From: a phage | Sequence record: PZ049713.1 | Length of the DNA: 59,621 bases | Reading direction: 5' to 3' (one strand) | In this document: one piece after another, positions 4,477 to 48,859 of the stretch | How positions within the stretch are numbered: position 1 is the stretch's first letter | Layout of the letters: each line of letters begins with the position of its first letter | Program-made: the position numbers and the translations under genes | Notes under the pieces: model-generated | Database searches by the model: none | The model's input: the letters and a program-made list of their open reading frames with translations, nothing else | Told to the model about the DNA's origin: nothing

Positions 4477-7467
4477 TCCACTGCCTCCAATGCCTTAGCC
4501 GGGTAAATCTGCACGCTGTTGCGATGGGCGCTGCTCTCGACTGCGTAGCCCTCTGGTGTCAGTTCCGTGGAGTAGGTGCCGCAGATATGGCCTTCCCACT
4601 CGCTGCCGGTGGACTTCTTCACGAGGTCGCCCATGCGGAACTTGCCTTGCGGGGCGGTCTGCGCGGAGCGGGTGAGTGACGCCGCGATGCGTTCGTGCTG
4701 GGCGACGGTCATATACTCCCCGTCGTCATCATCGGTCATATACGCCTCAACCTCAGAGGCGCGCCCGCAATGCGGCACGCTGGTCATCGGGCTGAACCGC
4801 TCCACCGCCTCCCGCTCATCCTGCGCCGGGCTGGCTCGTCGCCCTCCAGCTCTGCCGCTAGCTCGGGATTGCACACTGAGCAACCATCGCCAACCGTGCG
4901 CTCTCGCATCGTGCAGCGGCATTCCGACTCGGCCTGCTGGGATAGGGCGTCCTGATCCGTCCAGCCAGCGTGATCATGGAAAGGTGCAGGCCGCAGCCAT
5001 CGCCGTAGTGTTCGGCTTGGCAATCGACCACCTGCTGCGACGACCCGCGCATCGCTTCGTTCTCCGCCTTCGCAGCCCCCAGCTCAGCGCCGATTCGCCC
5101 GGCTACCTTCAGTGTGTCGTTCATTGCTCAATCTCCTTGATTGTGGCCAGCGGCAGCCCGCTCATTGCCAGCGGCTCGTCGTAGCAGACGCCCATCATCT
5201 CGGGCCATTTACGCGGCTCGCCCGGGTTTGATGGCGCCCTGGTATATGCCGGTCCCATGCCAGCCGATGCCGGATGACCTCGATACAAGTCCCACGCAAT
5301 GCCATCCTCGCGGCGCTTCGTGGCCTCCGGCATCAGTGTGCAGCCAGGCGCTGGATCTCGTGCCGCGTGGCGTGGACCTGCTCCCAGTCGCGCCGGTCGT
5401 AGAACCCGGCAGCCGCTCAATGGCGTGATCTGATCTGGCCGATCTTGATGCGTGCCAGTAGCTCACAGGCCTCTTGCAGCTCGGCGGCCTGGCGCTCGAG
5501 TTACGTGTGATGGTGTAGGTGCGCATTGGCGCCTCCTCGGCGGCTCCGGTGGGCGGCAGCGGAAACAGGGCGCATGGCCGATCCGCTTCCGTCTGTGCGG
5601 CAGAAGATTGGTGCGTTCACAGCGGCAGCGACCTGCACCGCAAGGCATTCGGCCTCGCCGTGGGGTGATGCAAGCCGATTCACTCGATCGCGCCACTCGT
5701 CCATCGACTCCCTGTGTCAGGGTGGCGGCCCGGCTTGTGGCATTCGGGCTGGAGAGGGCAGGCGCTGCAGCTGCTGCGGGACTTGAAGTTGTAGTGCTGG
5801 CGGCAGAGGGCCTTGGCGGTGTCGGATAGCTGGGTCACGGAGCAGATCCTTCGTAGCGGCTCACGCGGCGCAATGCGCGGCTCGACGTCGATGAACCGGA
5901 GCCTCGGAAGTCGCCATCGGTAGCGCGGCGACTGTCCACCTCAAGGCGCGCCGTGGCGTTAACCTCGGCCGCGACCTCGGCTACAGCCTTCGCTTGTCTC
6001 AATCGAGTAGGCTGCCGGCCAGCACGCCCTCCATCGTCTTGCCGAGGCATGGCGCGCAGATCACTGAGGTTGTTCATGGTGCTCTCCAGTTTGTCGAGCT
6101 TCCGCTCGAACCAGCCGAGCGTTATGGCTGCCTGGCGACCCTCGGGCGGATAGCGTTCGATTGAGTTGCGGCGCATGTCTTGTGCGGGTGACTAGCTCGA
6201 GGTTGTCGATTCCAGATGTTGGCGGGGTTGCGATCCTTGAAGACGAGGAAGTGCCCAGCCGGCACTGGGCCGCTGTGCCTTCCCACAACATCACGTGGAC
6301 CGGGCGCCAGTCAGTGCGCTTGTTGCCGGTGTCCGCCACCTTGCGGTAGAGGATGCCGCCCTTGTCGGTGCGCTCCGCTCCGATGGGGCGCCAGGTGTTC
6401 GATGGTCGGTGACCCAGCTTGAACTGCGTGTCCTTGGCCCGGCCTCCTGCCTGCCATCCTTTGCGGCCAGAGTTCCATGTCTGGTGGCCAGGCTTGAACC
6501 TGCCGCAGCCTGTGATTTCCTTGAACTCATCCGGTCGCGTTAGCTCCGAGTTTCGACACGCGATCGTGAATCGAGCCAGTGCCGCGCCCCATCAAGGCTG
6601 CTATCTCGGTGATGGGGCTTGGTGGCATAACAGTTCTGCCAGTGTTGCTGTCCTCTGCCGGCGTCCAGTGCCGGTATTCCGTGCGCCTCCTGCCGGCCAG
6701 TGGGCTCATTTCTTCCGTCTCCCGTGCGTTGTGGCTGTCCAGCCCGGCGCTGGCTACTTGGTTGCCGTGGTCAGCTATCAGGCTGTCGATCAGGGCGCCC
6801 ATGTAGGCGACTAGGCCAGTGACTGTTTCACCACGGGCCATCGCGCTGTGGGTGTGCTTCTCGCCGTTGGGCAGCACGAACCACGCGCTGGCGTTCCAGC
6901 TCGGAAGGGCGCCGAGGCTCAGTGCCGCGAACTACTGGCCGCGACACTCGGTTGTCGATTGAATAGAGCGTCACGATGCAGCTCATGGCTGGCACACCTC
7001 CAGCAGTGCCGCGTCGCTCAGATCACCAAGCGGCGCAGCGATGTATTGAGCAAGCGCGTAGACGCCCCACGGCTTGCCAGCGATTTCCGCCCGGTACGCC
7101 GCGTGACGGATGGCGTCGAGCACGTCGGGGAATCTCATGGCCACTCCTGCCGCAGCACGTCGTTCTGCTTGGCCTGCGGAGTGCCGCGCTTGCGCAGAGG
7201 GAGGCTGTTCGATACGGCAGAGTTGCGGGCGCCACGCTTGCGGCTGCGCTGGTCCGCCTCCGCGTTTCCGGCGTTGTTGAAGACGGCAGGCTTGATCTCT
7301 ATCGGCTTGCCGATGCTGTCGGGCAGCAGCTGGATCTTTCCGCCAGCGCTCAGGAATGCAGCCGGGCCGCGTCATCTGCGCGCGCGGAGCCTCGCCCTGC
7401 GCGACGGCATGGTTGTCGATGAGCGTGGGTGCGTACCGGGGAGGGGGCGGTGGCGCCGGGTGGATCA

Positions 7468-7603
7468 GATCAGCAGCAAGGGCAGCCGCAGCAACAGCGT
7501 CAAGGCCAGCCACAACGCAGCCAGCAGGCGGCGCCTCCAGCCTATGATGACGATGTGCCATTCGCCAACCCCTACTGCGGCGCCCGCTCGCTGCTGATCT
7601 GAT
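7468..7603 (+). other. 3' fragment of the 58480-58818 gene, truncated at the inversion junction
   Basis: 7468 onward is collinear with 58684 onward (Gln-rich C-terminus ...DQQQGQPQQQRQ...); sequence immediately upstream of 7468 is inverted-copy DNA. Confidence 0.8.
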
Positions 7604-7646
7604 CCACCCCGGGCGCCCAGCGCGCCCTCCTCCCCGGTACACACCC

Positions 7647-7940
7647 ATGCTCATAGACAACCATGCCATAGCGCAGGGCGAGGCTCTGCGCGCGCAAATT
7701 GACGCGGCCACGGCTGCATTCCTGAACGCTGGCGGAAAGATCCAGCTGCTGCCCGACAGCATCGGCAAGCCGATAGAGATCAAGCCTGCCGTCTTCAACA
7801 ACGCCGGAAACGCGGAGGCGGACCAGCGCAGCCGCAAGCGTGGCGCCCGCAACTCTGCCGTATCGAACAGCCTCCCTCTGCGCAAGCGCGGCACTCCGCA
7901 GGCCAAGCAGAACGACGTGCTGCGGCAGGAGTGGCCATGA
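7647..7940 (+). CDS. Hypothetical early protein
   Basis: 97-aa ORF; identical copy at 58863-59156; stop overlaps next start (ATGA). Confidence 0.45.
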   Translation: MLIDNHAIAQGEALRAQIDAATAAFLNAGGKIQLLPDSIGKPIEIKPAVFNNAGNAEADQRSRKRGARNSAVSNSLPLRKRGTPQAKQNDVLRQEWP

Positions 7941-8092
7941 GATTCCCCGACGTGCTCGACGCCATCCGTCACGCGGCGTACCGGGCGGAAATCACTGGCA
8001 AGCCGTGGGGCGTCTACGCGCTTGCTCAATACATCGCTGCGCCGCTTGGTGATCTGAGCGACGCGGCACTGCTGGAGGTGTGCCAGCCATGA
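7937..8092 (+). CDS. Hypothetical small protein (51 aa)
   Basis: Not in ORF track (below 60 aa); ATG 7937 overlaps upstream stop, TGA 8090-8092 overlaps next ATG; reads MRFPDVLDAIRHAAYRAEITGKPWGVYALAQYIAAPLGDLSDAALLEVCQP. Confidence 0.4.
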   Translation: MRFPDVLDAIRHAAYRAEITGKPWGVYALAQYIAAPLGDLSDAALLEVCQP

Positions 8093-8367
8093 GCTGCATC
8101 GTGACGCTCTATTCAATCGACAACCGAGTGTCGCGGCCAGTAGTTCGCGGCACTGAGCCTCGGCGCCCTTCCGACTGGAACGCCAGCGCGTGGTTCGTGC
8201 TGCCCAACGGCGAGAAGCACACCCACAGCGCGATGGCCCGTGGTGAAACAGTCACTGGCCTAGTCGCCTACATGGGCGCCCTGATCGACAGCCTGATAGC
8301 TGACCACGGCAACCAAGTAGCCAGCGCCGGCTGGACGGCCACAACGCACGGGAGACGGAAGAAATGA
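8089..8367 (+). CDS. Hypothetical early protein
   Basis: ORF-track frame 8080-8367; ATG at 8089 overlaps upstream stop. Confidence 0.4.
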   Translation: MSCIVTLYSIDNRVSRPVVRGTEPRRPSDWNASAWFVLPNGEKHTHSAMARGETVTGLVAYMGALIDSLIADHGNQVASAGWTATTHGRRKK

Positions 8368-9011
8368 GCCCACTGGCCGGCAGGAGGCGCACGGAATACC
8401 GGCACTGGACGCCGGCAGAGGACGCAACACTGGCAGAACTGTATGCCACCAAGCCCATCACCGAGATAGCAGCCTTGATGGGGCGCGGCACTGGCTCGAT
8501 TCACAATCGCGTGTCGAAACTCGGACTGACGCGACCGGATGAGTTCAAGGAAATCACAGGCTGCGGCAGGTTCAAGCCTGGCCACCAGACATGGAACTCT
8601 GGCCGCAAAGGATGGCAGGCAGGAGGCCGGGCCAAGGACACGCAGTTCAAGCTGGGTCACCGACCATCGAACACCTGGCGCCCCATCGGAGCGGAGCGCA
8701 CCGACAAGGGCGGCATCCTCTACCGCAAGGTGGCGGACACCGGCAACAAGCGCACTGACTGGCGCCCGGTCCACGTGATGTTGTGGGAAGAGCACAGCGG
8801 CCCAGTGCCGGCTGGGCACTTCCTCGTCTTCAAGGATCGCAACCCCGCCAACATCTCAATCGACAACCTCGAGCTAGTCACCCGCGCAGAGAACATGCGC
8901 CGCAACTCAATCGAACGCTATCCGCCCGAGTATCGCCAGGCAGCCATAACGCTCGGCTGGTTCAAGCGGAAGCTCAACAAACTGGAGCAGCACCATGAAC
9001 AACCTCAGTGA
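8364..9011 (+). CDS. HNH endonuclease (HNH_3-like) with N-terminal Myb/SANT-like HTH
   Basis: 215 aa; C-terminal ...HFLVFKDRNPANISIDNLELVTRAEN... resembles the HNH_3 core. Confidence 0.6.
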   Translation: MSPLAGRRRTEYRHWTPAEDATLAELYATKPITEIAALMGRGTGSIHNRVSKLGLTRPDEFKEITGCGRFKPGHQTWNSGRKGWQAGGRAKDTQFKLGHRPSNTWRPIGAERTDKGGILYRKVADTGNKRTDWRPVHVMLWEEHSGPVPAGHFLVFKDRNPANISIDNLELVTRAENMRRNSIERYPPEYRQAAITLGWFKRKLNKLEQHHEQPQ

Positions 9012-12282: not shown

Positions 12283-12630
12283 ATGGGCGCAGAGAAACTA
12301 GAGAATCTGCCGGAGTGGTTCCCCGACAAGGTGACTGAGCAGCAGATGGCCATGATACTTGGCACAACCGATCGAGCCCTAGAAGGCAGGCGAAGCCGGA
12401 ACCAGATTCCCGAGGGCGTCTGGAATCGCATCAATGGACGAATCTACTACAGCCGATCAAGGTACGAAGAATGGCAAGAAAGCCTATGGCACTGCCCACC
12501 GGAGTTGAGCTACGCAACGATACGATCCGCATCCGATTTAGCTGGAACGGAAAGCGATGCTCAGAAACCCTCGCCCTCCCCCCGACGCAAGCGGGCATTG
12601 CCGCTGCATCCCGTCTACGCGATCAAGTAG
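12283..12630 (+). CDS. xis: Excisionase-like DNA-binding protein (3' end uncertain, overlaps int)
   Basis: N-terminal ~65 aa (...VTEQQMAMILGTTDRALEGRRSRNQIPEGVWNRINGRIYYSRSRYEEW) resembles excisionase-family HTH proteins; immediately upstream of int. Confidence 0.5.
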   Translation: MGAEKLENLPEWFPDKVTEQQMAMILGTTDRALEGRRSRNQIPEGVWNRINGRIYYSRSRYEEWQESLWHCPPELSYATIRSASDLAGTESDAQKPSPSPRRKRALPLHPVYAIK

Positions 12631-13652
12631 TCCAGCAGATCAAGCACGGCATCTTCGACGAGCGTAAGTATGCCGAGCTCTTCCCGGGCTCGCCGAACGC
12701 CATATCGAGCGTTTCGCGCGGGTTCGGCCAGTACGCCCAGGTCTGGCTCGACAGCCGATCGATCTCGGAAGGCACGCGCGACAACTACAAGTCAGTGCTC
12801 AATGTCTGGTGGATGCCGTACCTGGCCACAACTCTCCTTCCCAACCTGACGACCGCCTTCATGCGCGAGCTAGTCGTTCAAATCCCATGGACCTCGGACG
12901 GCGTGAAGGCGAACGCCATGAACAAGCTGAGCACCATTCTCGAGTCGGCGGTTTCGGACAGGCTCCTGACGGAGAACCCAATTCAGGCGCTGGACATACC
13001 GACGCGGACGGAAGCGAAGGTCGACCCGTTCACGCAGGATGAGGCGGACAGGATCATTGCCAGGCTCTACGAAACGGAGCACTGGCCCAGCCAGATATAC
13101 GCTGCGTTCTTCGAGTTCGCTTTCTATACCGGCATGCGGTTAGGAGAGATCGCTGCCCTTCGCTGGGAAGAGGTCGATTTGAAGAGGCGTACGGTCCACG
13201 TCTGCAGGTCCGTAGCAAAGAAGAAGGTCGTCGAGCGGACGAAGACCAAGAAGGAAAGGTTTGTGCTGCTGAATGATCGGGCAGTGCATGCCCTTCTGTT
13301 CGCCAAGCAGTACGCCGAGCGGCGCGCGGCCGGCAGCGGGCGGCTGACAGATTTTCCGTTCTGCTTCCCGCCAAGCAAAAACTCTCAGTTCGTGCAGCAG
13401 ACAAGCGACCTGCATCACCAGTGGCGACCGACGCTAAAGGCGCTGGGTATTCGCTACCGGCCCCCGTACAATGCGCGCCACACCTACGCAACCATGTGCC
13501 TGATGGCCGGAATGACACCGGCATTCATCGCCAAGCAGCTCGGCCATTCGATACAGATTCTGCTGTCTCGGTATGCCCGCTGGATCGACGGCGAAGGCGA
13601 TTGGGCTGAGATGCGCAAATTGCAGTTTGCCCCAAAAGTGCCCCAAGCGTAG
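12471..13652 (+). CDS. int: Tyrosine-type phage integrase
   Basis: 393 aa; C-terminal catalytic region with ...ARHTYATMCLMAG...LGHSIQILLSRYARW... (R, H-x-x-R, Y). Confidence 0.9.
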   Translation: MARKPMALPTGVELRNDTIRIRFSWNGKRCSETLALPPTQAGIAAASRLRDQVVQQIKHGIFDERKYAELFPGSPNAISSVSRGFGQYAQVWLDSRSISEGTRDNYKSVLNVWWMPYLATTLLPNLTTAFMRELVVQIPWTSDGVKANAMNKLSTILESAVSDRLLTENPIQALDIPTRTEAKVDPFTQDEADRIIARLYETEHWPSQIYAAFFEFAFYTGMRLGEIAALRWEEVDLKRRTVHVCRSVAKKKVVERTKTKKERFVLLNDRAVHALLFAKQYAERRAAGSGRLTDFPFCFPPSKNSQFVQQTSDLHHQWRPTLKALGIRYRPPYNARHTYATMCLMAGMTPAFIAKQLGHSIQILLSRYARWIDGEGDWAEMRKLQFAPKVPQA

Positions 13653-39035: not shown

Positions 39036-39581
39036 TTATGCCGCTTGCTCAGCAATCAACCCCTCATTACCGAGGATCTCCTGCGCCTCAACCAGCGCTT
39101 GATCCACTTGGCGCTCCAGGTCACGGCGAATGTCCCGGCGCCACCGCTCCAGTGTCTTTTGCGGGCGGCCGTCTTCGTCCCAGCGGTCAAGCTCATACCA
39201 TGCGGCCGGCAATACGCTCGTGCTTCGCTTCCCTTCCGCGCCGGGCAGCTTCGGGAATGCCCAGGTGGCTACGGCGCACTGGATGAACCGGCCAGGTGCT
39301 GGCGACTTCACCGATCCGGCCAGCGCCATCATCGCATCGTGCTTGCGCTCCAGATGGGTGCTGTACTTGGCGACGAGCGCCAGCCACAGACCAACCGGCA
39401 GCGCCTTGTGCAGGCGACCATGGACCCAGCAGTCGGTTAAGAATGCCTCTTCCTTGCCGCAGATCGCCCCAGGCACTCGCTGGTCTTGCACCTTGGGGTC
39501 AAAGTCCACGCCGCCAGCGCTATTGATCGTCTCCGCAGCCAGAGCCCGGACTACTGCTGATACAACTGATGGGTAGGTCAT
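39036..39581 (-). CDS. Putative late-gene regulator (Q-like antiterminator candidate)
   Basis: 181 aa; positional only, last gene before the terminator-containing late leader; no motif recognised. Confidence 0.25.
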   Translation of the reverse strand: MTYPSVVSAVVRALAAETINSAGGVDFDPKVQDQRVPGAICGKEEAFLTDCWVHGRLHKALPVGLWLALVAKYSTHLERKHDAMMALAGSVKSPAPGRFIQCAVATWAFPKLPGAEGKRSTSVLPAAWYELDRWDEDGRPQKTLERWRRDIRRDLERQVDQALVEAQEILGNEGLIAEQAA

Positions 39582-40723
39582 CAGAACAATCTCCCAAGGG
39601 ATGCTGCGAATTCGTAAGGGTCTTTAGCGCTCTTGCGCAGGTTGCAAGGCGGGCACGCGATAACCAGATTGTCGACCACGTGCATTCCACCCTTCGATAG
39701 CGGCTGATAGTGGTCAACGTGATAGTTGTTTTCACACTTTGATTTGCACCAGTGGCAAAACTTTGGAACTGATCGCTCCCAGGCCATAATCACGGACGTA
39801 CTATCGCCACCAGCCTCTAGCTGTCTGCGCCTAGCCTTGTACGCTTTAGATATCGCCTTCCTGATCTCTGGATTCTTCTTTGCCCACTCTTTGGCTTTCT
39901 GCGCCCTTACTTCCCTGTTTTGTTCGTTGCGAATTCTCGCAAGTTGAATGATCCGATCCCTGTTTTCAGCAAGGTATTTCCGGTCGTACTCTTTTTTAAG
40001 TTCAGACCGTGAGAAAATTGCCAAGCACTCGACACATGATCCGGAGGCTGTATATTTCATGCCGCTGTGGCCCTTCGAGCACGGCCGTCCGACATACATT
40101 AAGGCGCCGCTTTCGAGCGCTATCTTTCGTGCGCTCTTGGCTATCCTGCGCTCCTTGCGACGAGCAGCTACCTCCGCCAGCCGAGACGATCGCTCTTCTG
40201 AGATTCGCTTGCGCTCTGCCTTCCCCTTCTCGTACTCCTCCAGCGTCATTCCGAACTTGGCGGCTGCCGATATAGCCTCGCATGTCCGGCAGCGATCAGT
40301 TGATACGTAGCGCTCTGCTGAATGTCCGTTAACGCACGGCAATCCGATGCTGTAGAACATCAGCCCGGCATCCATAGCAGCTTGCCGGAGAGAAGCGCGC
40401 CGTTCCCTCTCAGCTTTCCGCACGGCCAGCCCTGGATCTCGCTTCAGCCGTCGCGACATTTTCTTCTCTGCGCACAAAGGGTCAGAGTCACGCCGCAGCT
40501 TTTGCTCAGCGCGCTCGGCCTCTATGTTCGCGTGATACTTAGCTTTCCTCTTCAGCCTGGCGCACTCACAGCACGCGCCATTGATCGTGGCCCTGCTGGC
40601 GACGTGACCGGCAGGGCAAGGCTTGCCAGTGAAATAGGATTTGCTGCCGGCCTCCTTCGCCTCTTTTCGGCTGCAAGGAAGGTTCAAGTCATCTTGATCT
40701 TTGTTAGAATTCAAATCAGCCAT
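39581..40723 (-). CDS. HNH endonuclease with three N-terminal zinc-module repeats
   Basis: ~380 aa from ATG at 40723; C-terminal HVDHYQPLSKGG...NLVIACPPCNLRKS; three YFTG/YSIG/YVGxPC...GH...CxEC repeats. Confidence 0.65.
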   Translation of the reverse strand: MADLNSNKDQDDLNLPCSRKEAKEAGSKSYFTGKPCPAGHVASRATINGACCECARLKRKAKYHANIEAERAEQKLRRDSDPLCAEKKMSRRLKRDPGLAVRKAERERRASLRQAAMDAGLMFYSIGLPCVNGHSAERYVSTDRCRTCEAISAAAKFGMTLEEYEKGKAERKRISEERSSRLAEVAARRKERRIAKSARKIALESGALMYVGRPCSKGHSGMKYTASGSCVECLAIFSRSELKKEYDRKYLAENRDRIIQLARIRNEQNREVRAQKAKEWAKKNPEIRKAISKAYKARRRQLEAGGDSTSVIMAWERSVPKFCHWCKSKCENNYHVDHYQPLSKGGMHVVDNLVIACPPCNLRKSAKDPYEFAASLGRLF

Positions 40724-40806
40724 TTGTCGCTCCCATATAGCGCTAATGGTTAGGGCCGGCAGTGTGTTCCCGCACTCTGCTGGCCCGTTCAATTCTACCA
40801 AATTAA

Positions 40807-41934
40807 TCAAGCACATAACATTTCCGGCACAACTTCGTTAACTGCTACTCGCCCATATTCCTTGTGGTAGGTAATACCTATTGCGCGGCGGTTAGAGGCA
40901 TAGCCGAGTCTGGCTGCATATGATCCGGTCGCAGTCAGCGTCGGATGCCTGCGAACTATCATTCCGTTATGCGTAGCGACCTCTTCCTTGTGGTAGTGGC
41001 CGGTGTGCGCCTCTCTGTGCTTTGTGCAGCCCCAAATCTCGGGGAAGTTCGCCGCGAAGATGCCCGGCAGGTCCGAATTGCGCGCCTTGTGGCCGTGATG
41101 AAAGCCGAGCATCGTCTTGCCGTGCTGGTAGACGTAATACGGCGTCTCGCTCATGTTCACTTTCAATCTCGGCTCGTTTTCATATAGAGCCTCGAACATA
41201 TGGCGCAACCACAGCGATCCGGCCAAGTCATGGTTGCCCTCTGCAATTACCAGATGGACTTCCTCGTGCTTTGCCAGCGCCATATCAATAATGCTGCGTA
41301 GAACTTTGATACTAACCCGCACCAACTCTGCATATATGCCAGAGACGTTGAGCGGGTGCCGATTGGTTGGCGTTACTGGCTCCAGTCCGTCAAACGTCAG
41401 GAAGTCGCCTAGCTGGTTGATGACGCAATATCTCGCCTTGGCCGATGCGTTGATCATTGCGGCAAAGCAGCCGACAAGCACGCGCTCGGCTTCTTCGAGG
41501 TTCCAGTCGGCGCCACCCTGGATGGCAGTCGCGTATTCCCCGATGTGACAGTCCGTCAGGGTGTACAGGTTGCACAGCGCGTCGTCGGTTTGGGCAGGCC
41601 CGCCCATTGGCGCCAAGCGGTCTATCTGTTCGCCCATTGCTGCGGCTGCGGCGTGCATTAGCTCTAGCTGCCGTTCGTGGTCGATGCTGGACTTGACCCA
41701 CTGCAGCTTCTGCTCGCCGTCCTTGCCGTACAGTGTCGACGTGCCTTTCAGGTGGAAGCCGTCCGGCACGCTCTTGGTCATGTCGTGCTCCGGGCTCCAC
41801 CCCTGACGAGCCAAGCGCGCCTTATGGGTGTAGACGTTGCGCTCGTGCAGCCCAAGGATCTGCGCAGCCTCTGCCACAGTGCGGCCAGTCAGCGCGGCCT
41901 TGATTTCGTCGTCTGTCGCTTTGCGTGCGGCCAT
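40807..41934 (-). CDS. HTH-containing calcineurin-like metallophosphoesterase
   Basis: 375 aa; N-terminal HTH-like stretch; TDCHIG, GDFLTFDG, EGNHD, GFHHGH motifs. Confidence 0.5.
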   Translation of the reverse strand: MAARKATDDEIKAALTGRTVAEAAQILGLHERNVYTHKARLARQGWSPEHDMTKSVPDGFHLKGTSTLYGKDGEQKLQWVKSSIDHERQLELMHAAAAAMGEQIDRLAPMGGPAQTDDALCNLYTLTDCHIGEYATAIQGGADWNLEEAERVLVGCFAAMINASAKARYCVINQLGDFLTFDGLEPVTPTNRHPLNVSGIYAELVRVSIKVLRSIIDMALAKHEEVHLVIAEGNHDLAGSLWLRHMFEALYENEPRLKVNMSETPYYVYQHGKTMLGFHHGHKARNSDLPGIFAANFPEIWGCTKHREAHTGHYHKEEVATHNGMIVRRHPTLTATGSYAARLGYASNRRAIGITYHKEYGRVAVNEVVPEMLCA

Positions 41935-43043: not shown

Positions 43044-43349
43044 TCAAGCTGCACCCCGCACAGTCAGCACGCCGGCCTGAATCAGCGCGATATGCGTTTC
43101 GGCGATTGCGCGCGGCATGTCCTGCCAGTCCACCTCGCCCCGGCCACGGCCATCGATTGCGTCGTGGCACGAGCTGCAGGCGAACACAGCAACGGTGTCC
43201 AGCCCTTTCATACCGACCCCGCGCTGGCCACATGGCAGGTGTGCCAGAACGGTGGTCTCGGGGTTGAAGTTGCAGACGCCCGGAATGCGGACGGTACAGT
43301 CCTGGCCGCGGGCGCTGTCGCGGAGCTTCTTGGAGACGATGCGGGTCAT
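43044..43349 (-). CDS. Cys-rich nin-region protein (DUF1364/YbcO-like candidate)
   Basis: 101 aa; cysteine clusters CTVRIPGVC and CSSCHDAIDG. Confidence 0.35.
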   Translation of the reverse strand: MTRIVSKKLRDSARGQDCTVRIPGVCNFNPETTVLAHLPCGQRGVGMKGLDTVAVFACSSCHDAIDGRGRGEVDWQDMPRAIAETHIALIQAGVLTVRGAA

Positions 43350-43786
43350 GCTGCCCTCCGCTCGCCATAGATGGCGTACATCAGGTCTTCCGGGTGCGGC
43401 AGCAGCAGGCCCAGCTGCTCGGCGCAGTAGGCGTCAAGCAGCTCCAGGTAAGTGGTCATCTGCTGGATCGTGAAGGCTCGAGTCTTGGCTCGGCCTACCC
43501 GGTACCGGGCGCCGTCCGGCAGCTCTACCGGGTGCACCTCGGACGGCCATAGCTTGCTGACCAGGATCTCGTGCCATTCCTCAGCGCTGGCGATCTGCCC
43601 GAACGACTCGCGAAGGTGCTGCTGGATCAGGCCGTTCCACTGCCAGAGCAGACGGTTTTGGGCGTCGGAGCGCTTGCTGCGAATCTCGGTGATTGCGACC
43701 TTGCGAGGCTTGGAGAGGTCCAAGCCCTGCAGGAAGCTGATCAGGCGCTGGCGGTCCATGTCGGAGCGGAGCATGAGGTCAGCCAT
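43346..43786 (-). CDS. ninB: NinB (Orf) family recombination protein
   Basis: 146 aa; ...RSDAQNRLLWQWNG... parallels the lambda NinB ...RSLDQNRKLWACLG... region; same length. Confidence 0.7.
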   Translation of the reverse strand: MADLMLRSDMDRQRLISFLQGLDLSKPRKVAITEIRSKRSDAQNRLLWQWNGLIQQHLRESFGQIASAEEWHEILVSKLWPSEVHPVELPDGARYRVGRAKTRAFTIQQMTTYLELLDAYCAEQLGLLLPHPEDLMYAIYGERRAA

Positions 43787-44480
43787 TTACGCGGCCTCCT
43801 TCAAAGCTGGCAGCGAGCTCAACGAATGCTGCGTAAGCCACTGCTGCCACTTGCCCGTTTCCAGAGGAGCGGTATCGGTCCACCCTTCCGGCCATCCCAT
43901 CAGCCACTCGTGGATTTCCGGGCTCGGACGCCCAAACACTCGCCGGAACTCGCGCGCGGCCGGCCACTTCTGCATTGAATCGGCGCAGTAGTTCGCCTTG
44001 GTCGTCGGCGTGTGCAAGTAGCCAGTAGCGCTGCCGAACGTGGTCAGCACCCAGGTCTGCCGCGGAGAGGGGAAGCATTCGGACTTGGTAACCCATGCGA
44101 ACGAGGTCGCGTCCGGCTTCTTCAATTGCTCGCTCGGCGACGTTCTCGGCGAAGACAAGCCTGGGAGCGACATCTGCCACGATCCGGCGCATCTCCGGCC
44201 AAAGGTTTTCAGCGTTGTTGCGTCCAGCAGCGGCAGTGCTGAAGGCCTGGCAGGGAAAGCCTCCAGATACGACGTCAACAATTCCGCGCCACGGTAGGCC
44301 GTCAAACGTTCGAACGTCATCCCAGATGGGGAACGGCGGGAGGACTCCATCGTTTTGTCGCTGGACCAGTACCCGCTGACAGTGCTCGTCGTGCTCGACG
44401 GCGCAGACAGGAGTGATGCCGAGCAGGTGGCTTGCGAGCAGGCCGCCACCAACGCCCGCGAATAGAGAAAGCTCATACAC
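43779..44480 (-). CDS. Compact DNA (cytosine-5)-methyltransferase, orphan
   Basis: 233 aa; motif I LFAGVGGG, motif IV GGFPCQAFS, motif VI ENV, motif VIII RQRYWLL; no adjacent restriction endonuclease recognised. Confidence 0.8.
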   Translation of the reverse strand: MYELSLFAGVGGGLLASHLLGITPVCAVEHDEHCQRVLVQRQNDGVLPPFPIWDDVRTFDGLPWRGIVDVVSGGFPCQAFSTAAAGRNNAENLWPEMRRIVADVAPRLVFAENVAERAIEEAGRDLVRMGYQVRMLPLSAADLGADHVRQRYWLLAHADDQGELLRRFNAEVAGRARVPASVWASEPGNPRVADGMAGRVDRYRSSGNGQVAAVAYAAFVELAASFEGGRVNG

Positions 44481-44736: not shown

Positions 44737-44891
44737 TTCCGTGCTCCTACGCCGCGCTGGGTGCTTCCGTCAGCACAGACGACGCGATGGTCATTGCCGC
44801 GTGATAGGCCTATGCCGGTCGCGGTGGTTTTTCGTATCTGGTAGCCCTGGCGCTGCAGGAGCTGGATGGCGTGCTGCTGGATAGGGGTCAT
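44733..44891 (-). CDS. Small protein (52 aa), translationally coupled between dnaB and traR-like gene
   Basis: Not in ORF track; ATGA overlap with dnaB stop and ATGA overlap with the traR-like start; reads MTPIQQHAIQLLQRQGYQIRK... Confidence 0.35.
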   Translation of the reverse strand: MTPIQQHAIQLLQRQGYQIRKTTATGIGLSRGNDHRVVCADGSTQRGVGARK

Positions 44892-46258
44892 GCGAAATCC
44901 CCCGATGCACTGCGACTGCGGAACCGGCCCATCTCAACTTCTTCCTGGCTGATCTCGCGCGCACCCGCGAAGCTCACGAACCGCGCGAACTGGCCTTGCT
45001 GCTGAAGGAGGCACGAGCCAACTTGCGCATGACGGCACTTTGTCATCAGGATTTCGGTGACGCCGTTCTGGCCTTCCTCGGTGTCCATGTCCCGGTGAAC
45101 CATGAGGATGCAGTGGGCGTCTGCCTCGATTTCGCCAGAGTCGCGCAGGTCAGCCGAGACGGGCTTTTTGCCTACGCGTTTGGTCGAATCACGGTTGAGC
45201 TGGGAAAGCAGGATTACGGGAATCCCAAGCTCTTTGGAGAGGTTCAACATCGCTTTGCTGATCTTGCCGACCTCTTCCGAGCGACTGCGCCCCTTCGCGT
45301 CAGCCGGGATCAGGCCGAGGTAATCGACCATCACGATGTCAAGGCCATGGTTGCGCTGAACCTGACGGGCTATCGACCGAATGCGCGCCGGGGTCATTCC
45401 AGGGCGGTCGCAGACGTAAAGTGGCTTGTCGACACACTTGGCTACTGCGGCGGTCATGCCCTGCCAATCGCCGTCCTGCATGTCTACGCCAGAGTCGAGC
45501 CGGCCGATATCAACCGACCCGAGAGATGCAATGACGCGCTGGCCAAGCTCTTCCTCTGGCATTTCCAGACTGAAGACCAGGCCAACACCCGCGCCGATCA
45601 TTGCGATGTTCTGAACGATCTGCAGGCCAAGCGTCGTCTTGCCGCTGCCAGGCAGGCCGGCAATCACGGTGACAGTACGGGGACGTAGGTGTCGGGTCAG
45701 CTTGTCGAGGTCAGGCAAGCCGGTGGAAAGCCCCACGACGCGCTTACCGTTGTGCTTCTCGTCGATCGTGTCGACGTTCTTGCGCACGATTTCGTCGATT
45801 CGCTTGTAGCCTGGCTCTCCGTCTTCCAAGTCGCGCAGGTCGGCCATCGCCTGCTGTGCGCTCGCGATAATGTCTGCAAGCGGCTTTTCCTCGGTCGCCA
45901 TCTCTGTCACGGCATTGGCGGCGTCCACCAGTCGGCGCAGAACGGCACGCTCGCGCACGGCTTTGGCATACGCTTCCCAGTTCGCCGTGCTGTAGGTGGC
46001 CTTTGCGATCTCTCCGGCATAGGCGATAGTCGAGTCGCCAGAAGGCAGCTCAGGGCGGAAGATCCCGACCGTCACAGGGTCGATAGGCTCGCCAGCGGCG
46101 TGGCAGTCGAGAATGGCCTGATACAGCGCGGCGTTTTCGATGTCGTAGAAGTCAGCCGCCACGACCTTGCCGCTGATCGCGTCAAACAGGCTCGGGTCGA
46201 GCATCATCGCGCCAAGCACGCCCCATTCGGCTTCGACGCTGTACAGTTCGCGGCTCAT
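44888..46258 (-). CDS. dnaB: Replicative DNA helicase DnaB
   Basis: 456 aa; Walker A GLPGSGKTT; RecA-like C-terminal domain. Confidence 0.9.
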   Translation of the reverse strand: MSRELYSVEAEWGVLGAMMLDPSLFDAISGKVVAADFYDIENAALYQAILDCHAAGEPIDPVTVGIFRPELPSGDSTIAYAGEIAKATYSTANWEAYAKAVRERAVLRRLVDAANAVTEMATEEKPLADIIASAQQAMADLRDLEDGEPGYKRIDEIVRKNVDTIDEKHNGKRVVGLSTGLPDLDKLTRHLRPRTVTVIAGLPGSGKTTLGLQIVQNIAMIGAGVGLVFSLEMPEEELGQRVIASLGSVDIGRLDSGVDMQDGDWQGMTAAVAKCVDKPLYVCDRPGMTPARIRSIARQVQRNHGLDIVMVDYLGLIPADAKGRSRSEEVGKISKAMLNLSKELGIPVILLSQLNRDSTKRVGKKPVSADLRDSGEIEADAHCILMVHRDMDTEEGQNGVTEILMTKCRHAQVGSCLLQQQGQFARFVSFAGAREISQEEVEMGRFRSRSASGDFA

Positions 46259-47046
46259 ACCTCACCCCCGCGCGCCGAGTCCCAATCAAAGATCACTGCT
46301 AGGCCTCCGTTTTCGCGCAGCCGGTCAAGCGCGCGATCGCCGATGTATGCAGCCAGCTCAGCGCTTGGCAGGTTCGAAGTCACGATGGTGGGAAACATGT
46401 TCCGGTAGCGGGCGTCGATGATCGTGTGCAGCGCCTGGCGCTCGAACTCGGTTCCGCCCTGGGCGCCGATCTCGTCGATCAGCAGCAGATCAACACTTGC
46501 CAGCTCTTCGAAAATCGCCTGCTCAGTCACCGCAGAGTCGCGCCCAAAACTGGACTTGATTGCGGCGATGATGTCGGCGGCCGGCACATAGAGCGCCGTC
46601 GCGCCGTACTGGCGAACCACGGCCTTGAGCACGGCGCAGCCAAGATGGGTCTTGCCGTTGCCGAAGTTCCCCAGCAGCAGCAAGCAGCGGCCTGCGTCGT
46701 AGTTCTCTTGGAACTGATCGACATAGGCTCGGCACTCATCGAGAGCGGCCTTCTGTCCAGCCAGCGGCGTGCGGTAGTTATCCAGCGAGCACTGACGGAA
46801 ACGTGCGGCGATGCCAGTTGCAAACAGAGCAGCGTTGACCGCCTCCCACTGCTTCGACTCGACGGCAGCGGCACGTGCAGCTTCGTCCGTCCCGTGGATG
46901 GCATCGAACCGGCAGCGCGGGCATCCGGTGACGCGGTGCTTGTCGTCAAATGATTCGATCAAGGTACGCTGGTACTCGCCGTGCAGTTCGCACTGCTCCG
47001 GGCGAGATTTGATCCGCGGCGAGGCGCCGAAGTTAGAAGTTCGCAC
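46255..47046 (-). CDS. DnaC/IstB-like helicase loader ATPase
   Basis: 263 aa; Walker A GNFGNGKTH, Walker B LLLIDEIG. Confidence 0.7.
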   Translation of the reverse strand: MRTSNFGASPRIKSRPEQCELHGEYQRTLIESFDDKHRVTGCPRCRFDAIHGTDEAARAAAVESKQWEAVNAALFATGIAARFRQCSLDNYRTPLAGQKAALDECRAYVDQFQENYDAGRCLLLLGNFGNGKTHLGCAVLKAVVRQYGATALYVPAADIIAAIKSSFGRDSAVTEQAIFEELASVDLLLIDEIGAQGGTEFERQALHTIIDARYRNMFPTIVTSNLPSAELAAYIGDRALDRLRENGGLAVIFDWDSARGGEV

Positions 47047-47842
47047 GACGAACCCCCAGGCGCTTGTTCTCTTCGGTCTTGGCGCGGATCTCTGCGGCGT
47101 TCACGGGCGGCAGGTTGGTGAATCGCGACATCTGGATCGGGCGGACATTGGCGGTCACCTTCTCAGGGAACAATCCGGTCCAGCCATTGGTGATCGAGAG
47201 CAGGATCACGGCGTCAGGGCTCGCGTGACCTTCCAGTTCCTTCGCCTGACGCTTGCAGCTCGTTTCGGTCAGCGGCTTGCGGATTTCCTTGCGGTGAGCA
47301 ACCCAGTCTGCCCAAACCTCAGCGGACACGTTGGCAGGCTTTGCAGCCAGAGCATCAAACTTCTTTCCCTTCGCCGGCGCGTCAGCGCCGTGCTCTTTCG
47401 GATCATTGATGGTTAAAGGATGGTTAAAGGACGGATTGGGTGCAGGAGCTGCACCCCGTTCTGTCGTGAGCTGCACCCCGTTCGTGCATGAGCTGCACCC
47501 CGTTGTGTCGTCAGATTCACCCCGTTCAGAACCGGGTGCATCTGCTGCACCCCGATCCATGCACAGGTCATATACCACTGGACGGCGGTCGTGGCGGTCA
47601 ATGTAGGCCGCAGCGATCGCCTGATTGCCCAGGGTGATTACCTCAGCCTCACGCAGAGACTCCAGCGCCGTGCGGATCGTGCGAACGGACAGGCCGGTGT
47701 CTTCGCTCAGGCTGCTTGCGGAAGGGAATGCGGCCTTACCATTCTTATCGGCGTAGTTCGCCAGGCACAGAAGAACATGGCGCGCCGTTGGCGAGGTAAC
47801 GATGCGCTGCTCAAGCGCCCAGGTCATGGCTTGAACACTCAT
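47033..47842 (-). CDS. Replication initiator (lambda O-like) containing ori iterons
   Basis: ~269 aa from ATG at 47842 (MSVQAMTWALEQ...); N-terminal HTH-like region; iterons in mid-gene. Confidence 0.6.
   Translation of the reverse strand: MSVQAMTWALEQRIVTSPTARHVLLCLANYADKNGKAAFPSASSLSEDTGLSVRTIRTALESLREAEVITLGNQAIAAAYIDRHDRRPVVYDLCMDRGAADAPGSERGESDDTTGCSSCTNGVQLTTERGAAPAPNPSFNHPLTINDPKEHGADAPAKGKKFDALAAKPANVSAEVWADWVAHRKEIRKPLTETSCKRQAKELEGHASPDAVILLSITNGWTGLFPEKVTANVRPIQMSRFTNLPPVNAAEIRAKTEENKRLGVRRANF
47446..47555. repeat. Iteron array (origin of replication candidate) inside initiator gene
   Basis: GAGCTGCACCCCGTT at 47446, 47468 and 47490 (22-bp period), with degenerate copies near 47516 and 47541; adjacent tandem ATGGTTAAAGG x2 at 47409-47430. 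Confidence 0.65.
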
Positions 47843-47843
47843 C

Positions 47844-48074
47844 TCAAATCTCCAGCTCGTCAGTGACGCGCTTGATGAACTCGTCGTAGCTCTCGGCCAT
47901 CTGAATACCCAGCTCTTCCAGGGCGCCGCGATAAGCCTTGGCCGATCCGTAGAGAGCCCAGCGATCACGCTCATGCAGATGCTTGAATGCCGAGTAGGAA
48001 GGCCACGGCCCTGCGATAACGGCGCTTGCGCGCTGCTGGTCGATGGTGTTGCGGTGGAAGTCGTGTTGGCGCAT
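47844..48074 (-). CDS. Hypothetical protein
   Basis: 76-aa ORF ending 1 nt before the initiator start. Confidence 0.4.
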   Translation of the reverse strand: MRQHDFHRNTIDQQRASAVIAGPWPSYSAFKHLHERDRWALYGSAKAYRGALEELGIQMAESYDEFIKRVTDELEI

Positions 48075-48145
48075 AATTCACTCCAGTTCAGTTGTACCGC
48101 TGTTGAGAGCCCACCCTGTCCGGTGGGCTTTTTATTGCCTGCGAT

Positions 48146-48568
48146 TCAGGCGACCTTTACCGACTCGATCAGCACGTCGAGGCTCTTTTGCGCCTCTCCG
48201 ATCTCGCGCTTGATCAAGGCTTTCTCGGTTTGGGATACATGGCCGTCTTCCAGCGCTGCGGTGACGGCGCGGGTCACGTCGGCGACCTCTGCGTGCATGT
48301 GCAGGACGGCTGTGGAAAGCTGTTCCGACTTGGGGCGCTCCTTGGCTACCAGCTCGAAGCCGAACGAATCAGCCAGCGCTTCCAAGGGGCGCATATCGCC
48401 TGTGTGCAGCAGGATTCCGAACAGGTGCTCGATGGTCAGGTGATGGGCATCGTTGTCCGGGTTTGCGCGCTGAAGCAGGCTCACATGCGGAACGCCCATC
48501 TTTGCTGCCAGGGCCTTGGCTTCGTGGTCCAGCACTGCGGACTGGGTGGCTCTGAGGAAATCTTCCAT
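48146..48568 (-). CDS. CII-like regulatory protein candidate
   Basis: 140 aa; position between cro and replication genes; resemblance to CII (CP76)-type regulators recalled, not verified. Confidence 0.4.
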   Translation of the reverse strand: MEDFLRATQSAVLDHEAKALAAKMGVPHVSLLQRANPDNDAHHLTIEHLFGILLHTGDMRPLEALADSFGFELVAKERPKSEQLSTAVLHMHAEVADVTRAVTAALEDGHVSQTEKALIKREIGEAQKSLDVLIESVKVA

Positions 48569-48655
48569 CGCGTAAAACCTCTTTTCTCTTTCCGTGGAGC
48601 CCTACCGTTCGTCGGGCAATACTGGATTCATGGAAACCACTGACAGGGATGTCGC

Positions 48656-48838
48656 TTATGCAGCTACTGGAGCCTTGCGAACCGCCTTGAACTTGCCGCG
48701 GGACAGGACCTGAATTTGGTACTGGCGAGACTCGGGAACCGTCTCCCCCCACATGGTTACTGCGCTGGGGCGGATACCGAGGGCGTCCGCTAGCTTCTTC
48801 TTGCTGCCGAAGAAATCGGCCACGTCTTGAGTCTTCAT
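48656..48838 (-). CDS. cro: Cro-like HTH repressor
   Basis: 60 aa; HTH ...KKKLADALGIRPSAVTMW...; divergent from cI across an operator region. Confidence 0.7.
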   Translation of the reverse strand: MKTQDVADFFGSKKKLADALGIRPSAVTMWGETVPESRQYQIQVLSRGKFKAVRKAPVAA

Positions 48839-48859
48839 TGCTCGACCTCGGGTTAGCTT

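Follow-up and report, generated by a model that had tools for sequence, protein, structure and literature searches.

A replication origin most probably lies inside the initiator gene of a lambdoid prophage. The DNA analysed is a stretch of 59,621 nucleotides from a phage (sequence record PZ049713.1), called the window below, and the element of concern is an array of five repeats with a low-GC stretch behind it, both within the minus-strand gene for the replication initiator (Table 1). We consider it probable that 47393-47557 is the vegetative replication origin, embedded in the part of the phage's own initiator gene that encodes the linker between two protein domains. With still higher confidence, the array is regarded as a cis element bound by the N-terminal domain (N-domain) of the initiator. 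Directly supported, as described below, are the architecture of the repeats, selection at the DNA level, inheritance together with the N-domain, and a location in a linker that is probably disordered.

Five copies of the core CGGGGTGCA (minus strand) lie within 47438-47557. On the plus strand, the exact 15-mer GAGCTGCACCCCGTT was found at 47446, 47468 and 47490, both by reading the sequence and by a repeat finder, and copies with three mismatches stand at 47512 (CAGATTCACCCCGTT) and 47542 (CTGCTGCACCCCGAT). The original prediction had listed three exact and two degenerate copies at 22-bp spacing; the copies are all present, while the uniform spacing does not hold, the distances being 22, 22, 22 and then 30 bp along the array. 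How unusual is such a cluster? At three mismatches or fewer the 15-mer matches 10 times in the window against 2.95 +/- 1.8 times in dinucleotide-preserving shuffles (n = 100), and 0 of the 100 shuffles reached 10. The exact octamer GGGGTGCA occurs six times in 59.6 kb, four of them inside 104 bp and in the same orientation. Tandem Repeats Finder gives the array as the strongest tandem repeat of the window, and the tandem-repeat scan found no second iteron-like array elsewhere in it. Three further 15-mer matches with three mismatches fall within 500 bp at 43046-43540, about 4 kb from the array, and one of them includes an exact GGGGTGCA at 43050. They were taken as chance, since outside the array the 15-mer matches as often as the shuffles predict.

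The five sites are of two kinds. The outer two are palindromes, GGGTGCA-N5-TGCACCC, at 47438-47456 and 47534-47552, a property that the original prediction did not mention. In 17 relatives with the canonical layout, about 7 of 8 positions are mirrored at sites 1 and 5, against 1-2 of 8 at sites 2-4, and sites 2-4 have in common a right part ...CACGAC.... Directly after site 5 comes the low-GC stretch, the proposed DNA-unwinding element. It has the lowest 30-bp GC of the block 44888-47842 (0.33-0.40 vs 0.60 gene-wide), and 30-bp windows at GC <=0.40 make up 2.2% of the whole window. Inside it the repeat finder and Tandem Repeats Finder both gave an 11-bp tandem GATGGTTAAAG in 2.2 copies at 47408-47431, so that the tandem duplication predicted near the array was recovered. 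Relatives keep the low-GC patch (0.35-0.52 vs 0.55-0.65), and in most of them the motif CCRTC stands at +3, +14 and +25 past the last palindrome; its period of 11 bp is one helical turn and no multiple of three. Three 22-bp spacings followed by a low-GC, 11-bp-phased element resemble, also in helical phase, the direct repeats of iteron plasmids next to an unwinding-type element.

Which protein would recognize the array? The start of the initiator gene was placed at 47842 (MSVQAMTW) and not at the mechanically listed upstream ATG at 47974, because all homologues share the beginning MSVQ(A/S)M.W and the protein database contains an identical protein of 269 amino acids. With this start the array covers gene nucleotides 286-405, that is codons 96-135 of 269, and the 11-mers cover codons 136-150. 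The protein matches Pfam HTH_36 (PF13730) at residues 17-66 with 50.7 bits (cutoff 25) and phrog_678, 'replication initiation O-like', over residues 1-261 (E 1.1e-51), which agrees with the earlier placement of the array in the middle of an O-like initiator open reading frame (ORF). An AlphaFold2 model built from a 44-sequence alignment has a winged-helix domain at residues 1-95, with a predicted local distance difference test score (pLDDT) of 80-92, a segment of pLDDT <50 at 99-156, and a helical C-terminal domain (C-domain) at 160-231 with pLDDT 85-92. The modelled protein is thus a single winged-helix domain plus a helical C-domain and not a tandem winged-helix protein of the Rep_3 type, and the linker encoded by the array and the 11-mers is probably a disordered segment between the domains. 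Pfam gave no Rep_3 match in the initiator, and RP-C stayed below threshold (18.7 bits vs cutoff 24.4). A blastp comparison with lambda O returned only E >= 0.49. Structure searches with Foldseek returned only generic winged-helix proteins, including DnaD-N and RctB domain 1, and a sequence search of the PDB, with the protein and the 44-sequence profile as queries, gave no significant relative. The protein has roughly 950 homologues in the protein database, and public records label these initiators only 'helix-turn-helix domain-containing protein' or 'hypothetical protein'.

Is the array kept for the DNA or for the peptide it encodes? When the 4-kb replication module was compared with 50,697 phage records by megablast, nothing matched, and comparisons were therefore made through the protein. 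The comparison set consisted of 24 genome loci with the same N-domain (locus numbers such as L003 are our own) and JBD68, a functional phage of Pseudomonas aeruginosa, 25 in total. The 24 genome loci have 35-74% overall amino acid identity and come from Pseudomonas spp., Azotobacter, Stenotrophomonas, Achromobacter, Bordetella and Gluconobacter. The CGGGGTGCA cores are kept in 25/25 of them at gene nucleotides ~290-386, in most with a spacing of 30, 22, 22, 22. Per kb, GGGGTGCA occurs 25 times in the array and 0.044 times in the 8-kb flanks of these loci, a difference of about 570-fold. Since 22 does not divide by three, the frame shifts along the repeats: all three frames are used, and one 9-mer core is translated as ERGA, TGC or NGVQ. 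The entropy at third codon positions falls from 1.1-1.7 bits over the N-domain to 0.2-0.7 bits in codons 97-144. Where a conserved amino acid has degenerate codons, the window and its relative agree in the codon at 87% of such positions in the array. For the N-domain the share is 49% and for the C-domain 52%, and the excess in the array is significant in 13/13 pairwise comparisons (p 0.007 to 2e-6). R97, G98, A99, G115, C116, R129, G130 and A131 are invariant in 44 proteins although they lie within the linker of pLDDT <50; they are readily explained by constraint on the DNA and not by protein function. Selection acts on the DNA itself rather than on the peptide.

Note that five closely related Pseudomonas loci carry an extra single GGGGTGCA about 430-550 bp upstream of the initiator start (L003, L006 and L007 at locus nucleotide 3572, L004 at 3447, L010 at 3494). 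The window has no equivalent. The extra copy could be an outlying initiator site or chance.

With which part of the replication module does the array travel? A tblastn matrix of the module parts against all loci indicates that these parts recombine freely. The N-domain is joined to other C-domains in L014, L020-L022, L024 and JBD68, the C-domain is joined to other N-domains in L025-L034 and L039, and the genes for the DnaC-like protein, DnaB, CII and the small ORF upstream of the initiator are variably present among loci. The GGGGTGCA array is found in 25/25 loci with the N-domain, and no GGGGTGCA cluster occurs in any locus that shares the C-domain only; nor does the array follow the C-domain, the DnaC-like protein, DnaB, CII or the small upstream ORF. 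Homologues of the small ORF precede initiators of differing N-domain types (L012, L015, L016, L023, L026 and JBD68), and the small ORF is therefore not tied to iteron specificity. Loci with the C-domain only have other arrays at the matching place in the linker, and behind each comes low-GC DNA (Table 1). In a Klebsiella lambdoid replication gene sharing the C-domain (L045), five TTACCTGATTCGGGTAA palindromes stand in the middle of the gene. L045 is recorded as a Klebsiella pneumoniae 'plasmid' (NZ_CP080357.1, 4627 bp) with only cI, cro, cII, the replication protein, the DnaC-like ATPase and ren. This is a gene set like that of lambda-dv, which may be either a mini-replicon occurring in nature or a fragment of an assembly. 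No bona fide plasmid with the window's initiator turned up in the plasmid collection, where the matches were phage-like records.

Among more distant relatives of the N-domain, the cores are changed by one or two bases, with variants including GGGGTGTA, GGGGTGGCA and AAAGGGTGCAAA; the variants across homologues were listed as GGGGTGCA, GGGGTGTA, GGGGTGGCA and AAGGGTGCA. For example, gp72 of Burkholderia phage phi1026b has six copies of AAAGGGTGCAAA at 21-22 bp spacing, one actinobacterial metagenome-assembled genome (MAG) has three copies of ACGGGGTGGCA followed by GAACCGTCC 11-mers, and a Bifidobacteriaceae MAG has five copies of GGGGTGTA. These two actinobacterial MAG contigs (L035 3172- and L036 4001-) encode N-domain relatives of 38-45% identity that keep the in-gene grammar with altered cores, and on this ground the family spans Proteobacteria to Actinobacteria. 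A further 44 Arthrobacter phage records were matched. Such covariation of array and N-domain is the pattern expected of cognate initiator-iteron pairs.

A scenario of initiation can be drawn by analogy with lambda O and ori-lambda and with iteron plasmids, from which the steps of binding, melting and helicase loading and the assignment of dimers and monomers are taken. The N-terminal winged-helix domain would occupy the five CGGGGTGCA sites, most likely as dimers on the outer palindromes, and the inner 22-bp repeats, two helical turns apart, would place the protein on one face of the DNA. The nucleoprotein complex would then open the low-GC stretch beside it, where CCRTC is phased at 11 bp, and the C-domain would bring in the phage's DnaC-like loader and DnaB, after which host primase and polymerase would take over. 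Transcription out of the Cro promoter region would cross the origin in the fashion of lambda.

Several points weigh against this reading. The initiator has no match to PF04492 (Phage_rep_O) at E <=0.01, while lambda O scores E 5.7e-36. Palindromic sites number two of five here, only the outer ones, the inner three being direct repeats, whereas all four are palindromic in lambda. The 'AT-rich' element has only ~37-42% GC over 30-48 bp against 23% in lambda. There is no DnaA box near the array; at <=1 mismatch to TTATCCACA the nearest is more than 3 kb off, and the total in the window is at the chance level. The C-domain occurs both with and without detectable DnaC and DnaB neighbours, which makes these only proposed partners. 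Within the searchable library no published description of this iteron or of the family grammar was found, a query with the sequence gave irrelevant primer matches only, and for such an origin in Pseudomonas or Burkholderia phages a general remark on phage MD8 was all that came up. For this family, binding and origin firing are what we infer from the analogy. Cumulative GC skew was discarded as origin evidence: its broad minimum at ~42.5-48 kb coincides with the switch of transcription strand at cI/cro and is uninformative.

Could the array serve another purpose? It might be a regulatory element bound by the initiator, for autorepression, a transcriptional roadblock or copy-number 'handcuffing', with the origin elsewhere. 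Palindromic sites of plasmid Rep proteins are often operators (PMC4980987), the outer two sites of the window are palindromic, and the low-GC tract is modest. Yet the window has no second iteron-like array, the array lies ~290 nucleotides into the gene and not at a promoter, a sigma-70 promoter scan of 44800-49100 gave no site, and the conserved low-GC, 11-bp-phased element that always follows the last site would be needless for an operator. We regard this explanation as unlikely, though the best of the alternatives; a regulatory role on top of origin function is possible.

Still less probable is that another protein and not the initiator occupies the sites. Candidates would be the product of phrog_7732, the small upstream ORF, or a factor of the host, or a protein for partition or packaging. 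In favour are the annotation of the small ORF as a transcriptional regulator and its near translational coupling to the initiator, and the Foldseek matches of the N-domain include the centromere-binding winged-helix proteins TubR and pNOB8 AspA. But the array accompanies the N-domain in every one of the 25 loci and its cores change along with that domain, while the small ORF is present in L026 without the array and absent from many loci with it, and CII, the DnaC-like protein and DnaB are not followed either. Structure in the mRNA or in single-stranded DNA, formed by palindrome hairpins and by long-range pairing of site 1 with site 5 and serving translation control or as a single-strand initiation or primosome-assembly signal, is very unlikely. 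The sense-strand RNA fold does pair site 1 with site 5 (-67 kcal/mol, z = -2.84; 2/200 shuffles equal), but any two identical palindromes pair automatically. Among relatives the stems are invariant in sequence and show no compensatory changes, and the N5 spacers vary. Conservation of the three inner cores is just as strong, yet they have no conserved partner, and where the N-domain is of another type the unrelated arrays share a repeat grammar but no common fold. Hardly credible at all is a protein-level repeat, or an amino acid constraint on the linker, in which the DNA plays no part. ERGA does recur (sites 1, 2 and 5), and some linker residues are invariant, but the 22-bp period is no multiple of 3, one core encodes ERGA, TGC and NGVQ, the synonymous positions are frozen and the stretch has pLDDT <50.

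Returning to the origin embedded in the initiator gene, is there a grammar common to the family? A tentative proposal, which we hold to be possible rather than probable, is that two dimer-type palindromes bracket three monomer-type direct repeats and are followed by 3-4 CCRTC motifs at exact 11-bp phasing, an arrangement unlike that of lambda and of iteron plasmids. This grammar would be conserved from Proteobacteria to Actinobacteria and rebuilt from unrelated sequences when N-domains are swapped (L028, for example), forming a portable specificity cassette with a sequence-specific single-strand step. The CCRTC motifs could be the single-strand element that the initiator recognizes by sequence, or a site for a host factor. 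If the proposal is true, the N-domain, the iterons and the unwinding element recombine as one unit, which would give a rule for predicting the origins and incompatibility groups of thousands of prophages.

Table 1. Positions of the origin candidate, of the genes around it in the window, and of the arrays in loci with other N-domains
Feature	Position	Strand	Description
Initiator gene, 269 amino acids	47842..47033	-	winged-helix, amino acids 1-95; probably disordered linker, ~96-156; helical C-domain, 160-231
Site 1 (promoter-proximal), palindromic	47534..47557	-	GATCGGGGTGCA-GCAGA-TGCACCC; right half mirrors left at 7.2/8 positions in relatives
Site 2, 22-bp direct-repeat unit, core degenerate	47505..47526	-	AACGGGGTGAATCTGACGACAC
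Site 3, 22-bp unit	47483..47504	-	AACGGGGTGCAGCTCATGCACG
Site 4, 22-bp unit	47461..47482	-	AACGGGGTGCAGCTCACGACAG
Site 5, palindromic	47438..47460	-	AACGGGGTGCA-GCTCC-TGCACCC; 6.9/8 mirrored in relatives
Low-GC stretch, proposed DNA-unwinding element	47393..47437	-	AATCCGTC-CTTT-AACCATC-CTTT-AACCATC-AATG-ATCCGAA; CCRTC phased every 11 bp
Cro	48838..48656	-	Pfam P22_Cro
CII	48568..48146	-	Phage_CP76
Small ORF, 76 amino acids	48074..47844	-	phrog_7732 'transcriptional regulator'; ends one nucleotide before initiator ATG
DnaC-like helicase loader	47046..46255	-	Pfam IstB_IS21 / Bac_DnaA ATPase; phrog_50 E 3.8e-73; start overlaps initiator end by 14 nucleotides
Phage DnaB-type replicative helicase	46258..44888	-	Pfam DnaB_C E 1e-68 and DnaB N-domain
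S24-type cI repressor	48916-49590	divergently transcribed	S24-type
Array of L025	linker position		TGTAGGCCC x4, spacing 21, 21, 24
Array of L027	linker position		GGTCGGAAAAA-N-ATCCGA x5, ~22 bp apart
Array of L029, L030, L031, L034	linker position		CCTATTCGGAAAAGG x4, spacing 20, 22, 23
Array of L028	linker position		palindrome CCTCCAGAATCTGGAGG, 3 x 33-bp direct repeats, palindrome again, AT-rich

The genes around the array stand on the minus strand in the order Cro, CII, small ORF, initiator, DnaC-like loader, DnaB. From this order and the gaps or overlaps of 1-14 nucleotides, Cro, CII, the small ORF and the initiator appear to share one rightward-type operon, with its upstream part at 47844..48838, and transcription starting at the Cro promoter region would cross the array. 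Terminator-like matches in 44800-49100 number 6 vs 3.5 +/- 2.0 in shuffles, which is near expectation. The rest of the window encodes siphovirus-type tail, tape-measure, portal, terminase and integrase genes. Because of the gene order, the divergent cI and the siphovirus-type genes, the module is the early-right replication module of a lambdoid prophage. The host is likely to be Pseudomonas-like, judging from the nearest relatives, which all come from Pseudomonas and allied genera.

Some other features of the window should be noted. A C-5 cytosine DNA methyltransferase gene (43779-44480, minus strand) follows that of DnaB at a short distance downstream, with the same orientation and two small ORFs in between. 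Directly downstream of cI are a DUF3800 gene (49620-50330, plus strand) and a P63C-domain gene (50952-52010, plus strand), which look like accessory cargo of the immunity region, a 'moron' or possibly defence. An exact direct repeat of 921 bp is found at 7468-8388 and 58684-59604, with starts 51,216 bp apart; it may mark the prophage ends or a recent duplication, and neither Pfam nor PHROG gave a match for the ORF in it (8116..6983, minus strand). The integrase gene (12471-13652, plus strand) has a position unlike a simple attL-int layout. HNH-endonuclease-type genes comprise an HNH_3 gene at 8364-9011 (plus strand) and an endonuclease VII / HNH PHROG match at 39581-40816 (minus strand).

What does the analysis add? 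That a lambdoid phage has its origin within the initiator gene is textbook knowledge, so the window offers a well-supported but ordinary example, and the conceptual gain over the lambda paradigm is small. What is gained is a precise origin candidate of ~165 bp, together with its putative cognate initiator domain, for temperate phages of Pseudomonas, Burkholderia and Bordetella, a large and widespread group. The array further gives a clean case of a DNA element constraining a coding sequence: residues of a probably disordered linker are invariant because the DNA is what selection acts on. The cassette of N-domain plus iterons could serve for phage-derived Pseudomonas replicons and for better annotation, and could help to predict replication incompatibility or exclusion among co-resident prophages.

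How does the candidate compare with known systems? In lambda, binding of O to the iterons goes with unwinding of the AT-rich tract, and O can bind single-stranded DNA as well (PMC7466680). Lambda O (NC_001416) has 299 amino acids, and its gene holds four 18-bp palindromic iterons at nucleotides 349-433 (39-48% of the gene) with spacing 20, 24, 23, read in frames 0, 2, 2, 1 and followed by 40 nucleotides of 23% GC in a gene of 48% GC. The window is alike in that the repeats lie mid-gene between the parts for the N- and C-domains (35-50% of the gene), and in that, as also in Stx phages 933W and P27, a cluster of 4-6 repeats at about two-turn spacing is read in several frames with the lowest-GC tract downstream. 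In both, the gene belongs to a Cro-CII operon crossed by rightward transcription. The window differs in that its initiator is an HTH_36 protein and not a PF04492 one, with no detectable sequence similarity; its low-GC tract is milder (0.33-0.40 vs 0.60, against 0.23 vs 0.48 in lambda) and carries an 11-bp-phased motif; and it has a DnaC-like loader and a phage DnaB, whereas P of lambda hijacks host DnaB. The original claim that the arrangement mirrors ori within lambda O is therefore upheld in position, multiple frames and low-GC tract, with support from the gene layout, the DNA-level selection and the strict inheritance of the array together with the N-domain, while O itself is not homologous and the activity is put forward by analogy. 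Bacillus phage SPP1 has its oriL within gene 38, with initiator-binding repeats in the initiator gene, and encodes the initiator G38P, the loader G39P and the DnaB-type helicase G40P. The window is similar in the trio of initiator, loader and replicative helicase and in the repeats inside the initiator gene, and different in that host and sequences are unrelated. In the Pseudomonas lambdoid phage MD8, internal repeats of an O-like gene were argued to indicate lambda-like replication (PMC8508860); MD8 differs in having an O-like and P-like pair and no helicase, and the likeness to its gp56 is by description only, the iteron sequence not being given there. The iteron plasmids (RK2 TrfA, F RepE, pPS10 RepA and R6K pi) resemble the window in their ~22-bp direct repeats, winged-helix initiator and adjacent unwinding element with short repeated motifs. 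They differ in that the window has no Rep_3-type domain and no nearby DnaA box, its origin candidate lies inside the rep gene and not beside it, and its context is a phage lytic module and not plasmid copy control. Plasmid Rep proteins bind one strand of the repeated motifs of the unwinding element sequence-specifically (PMC4081077; PMC4980987), which may offer a model for the 11-mers of the window.

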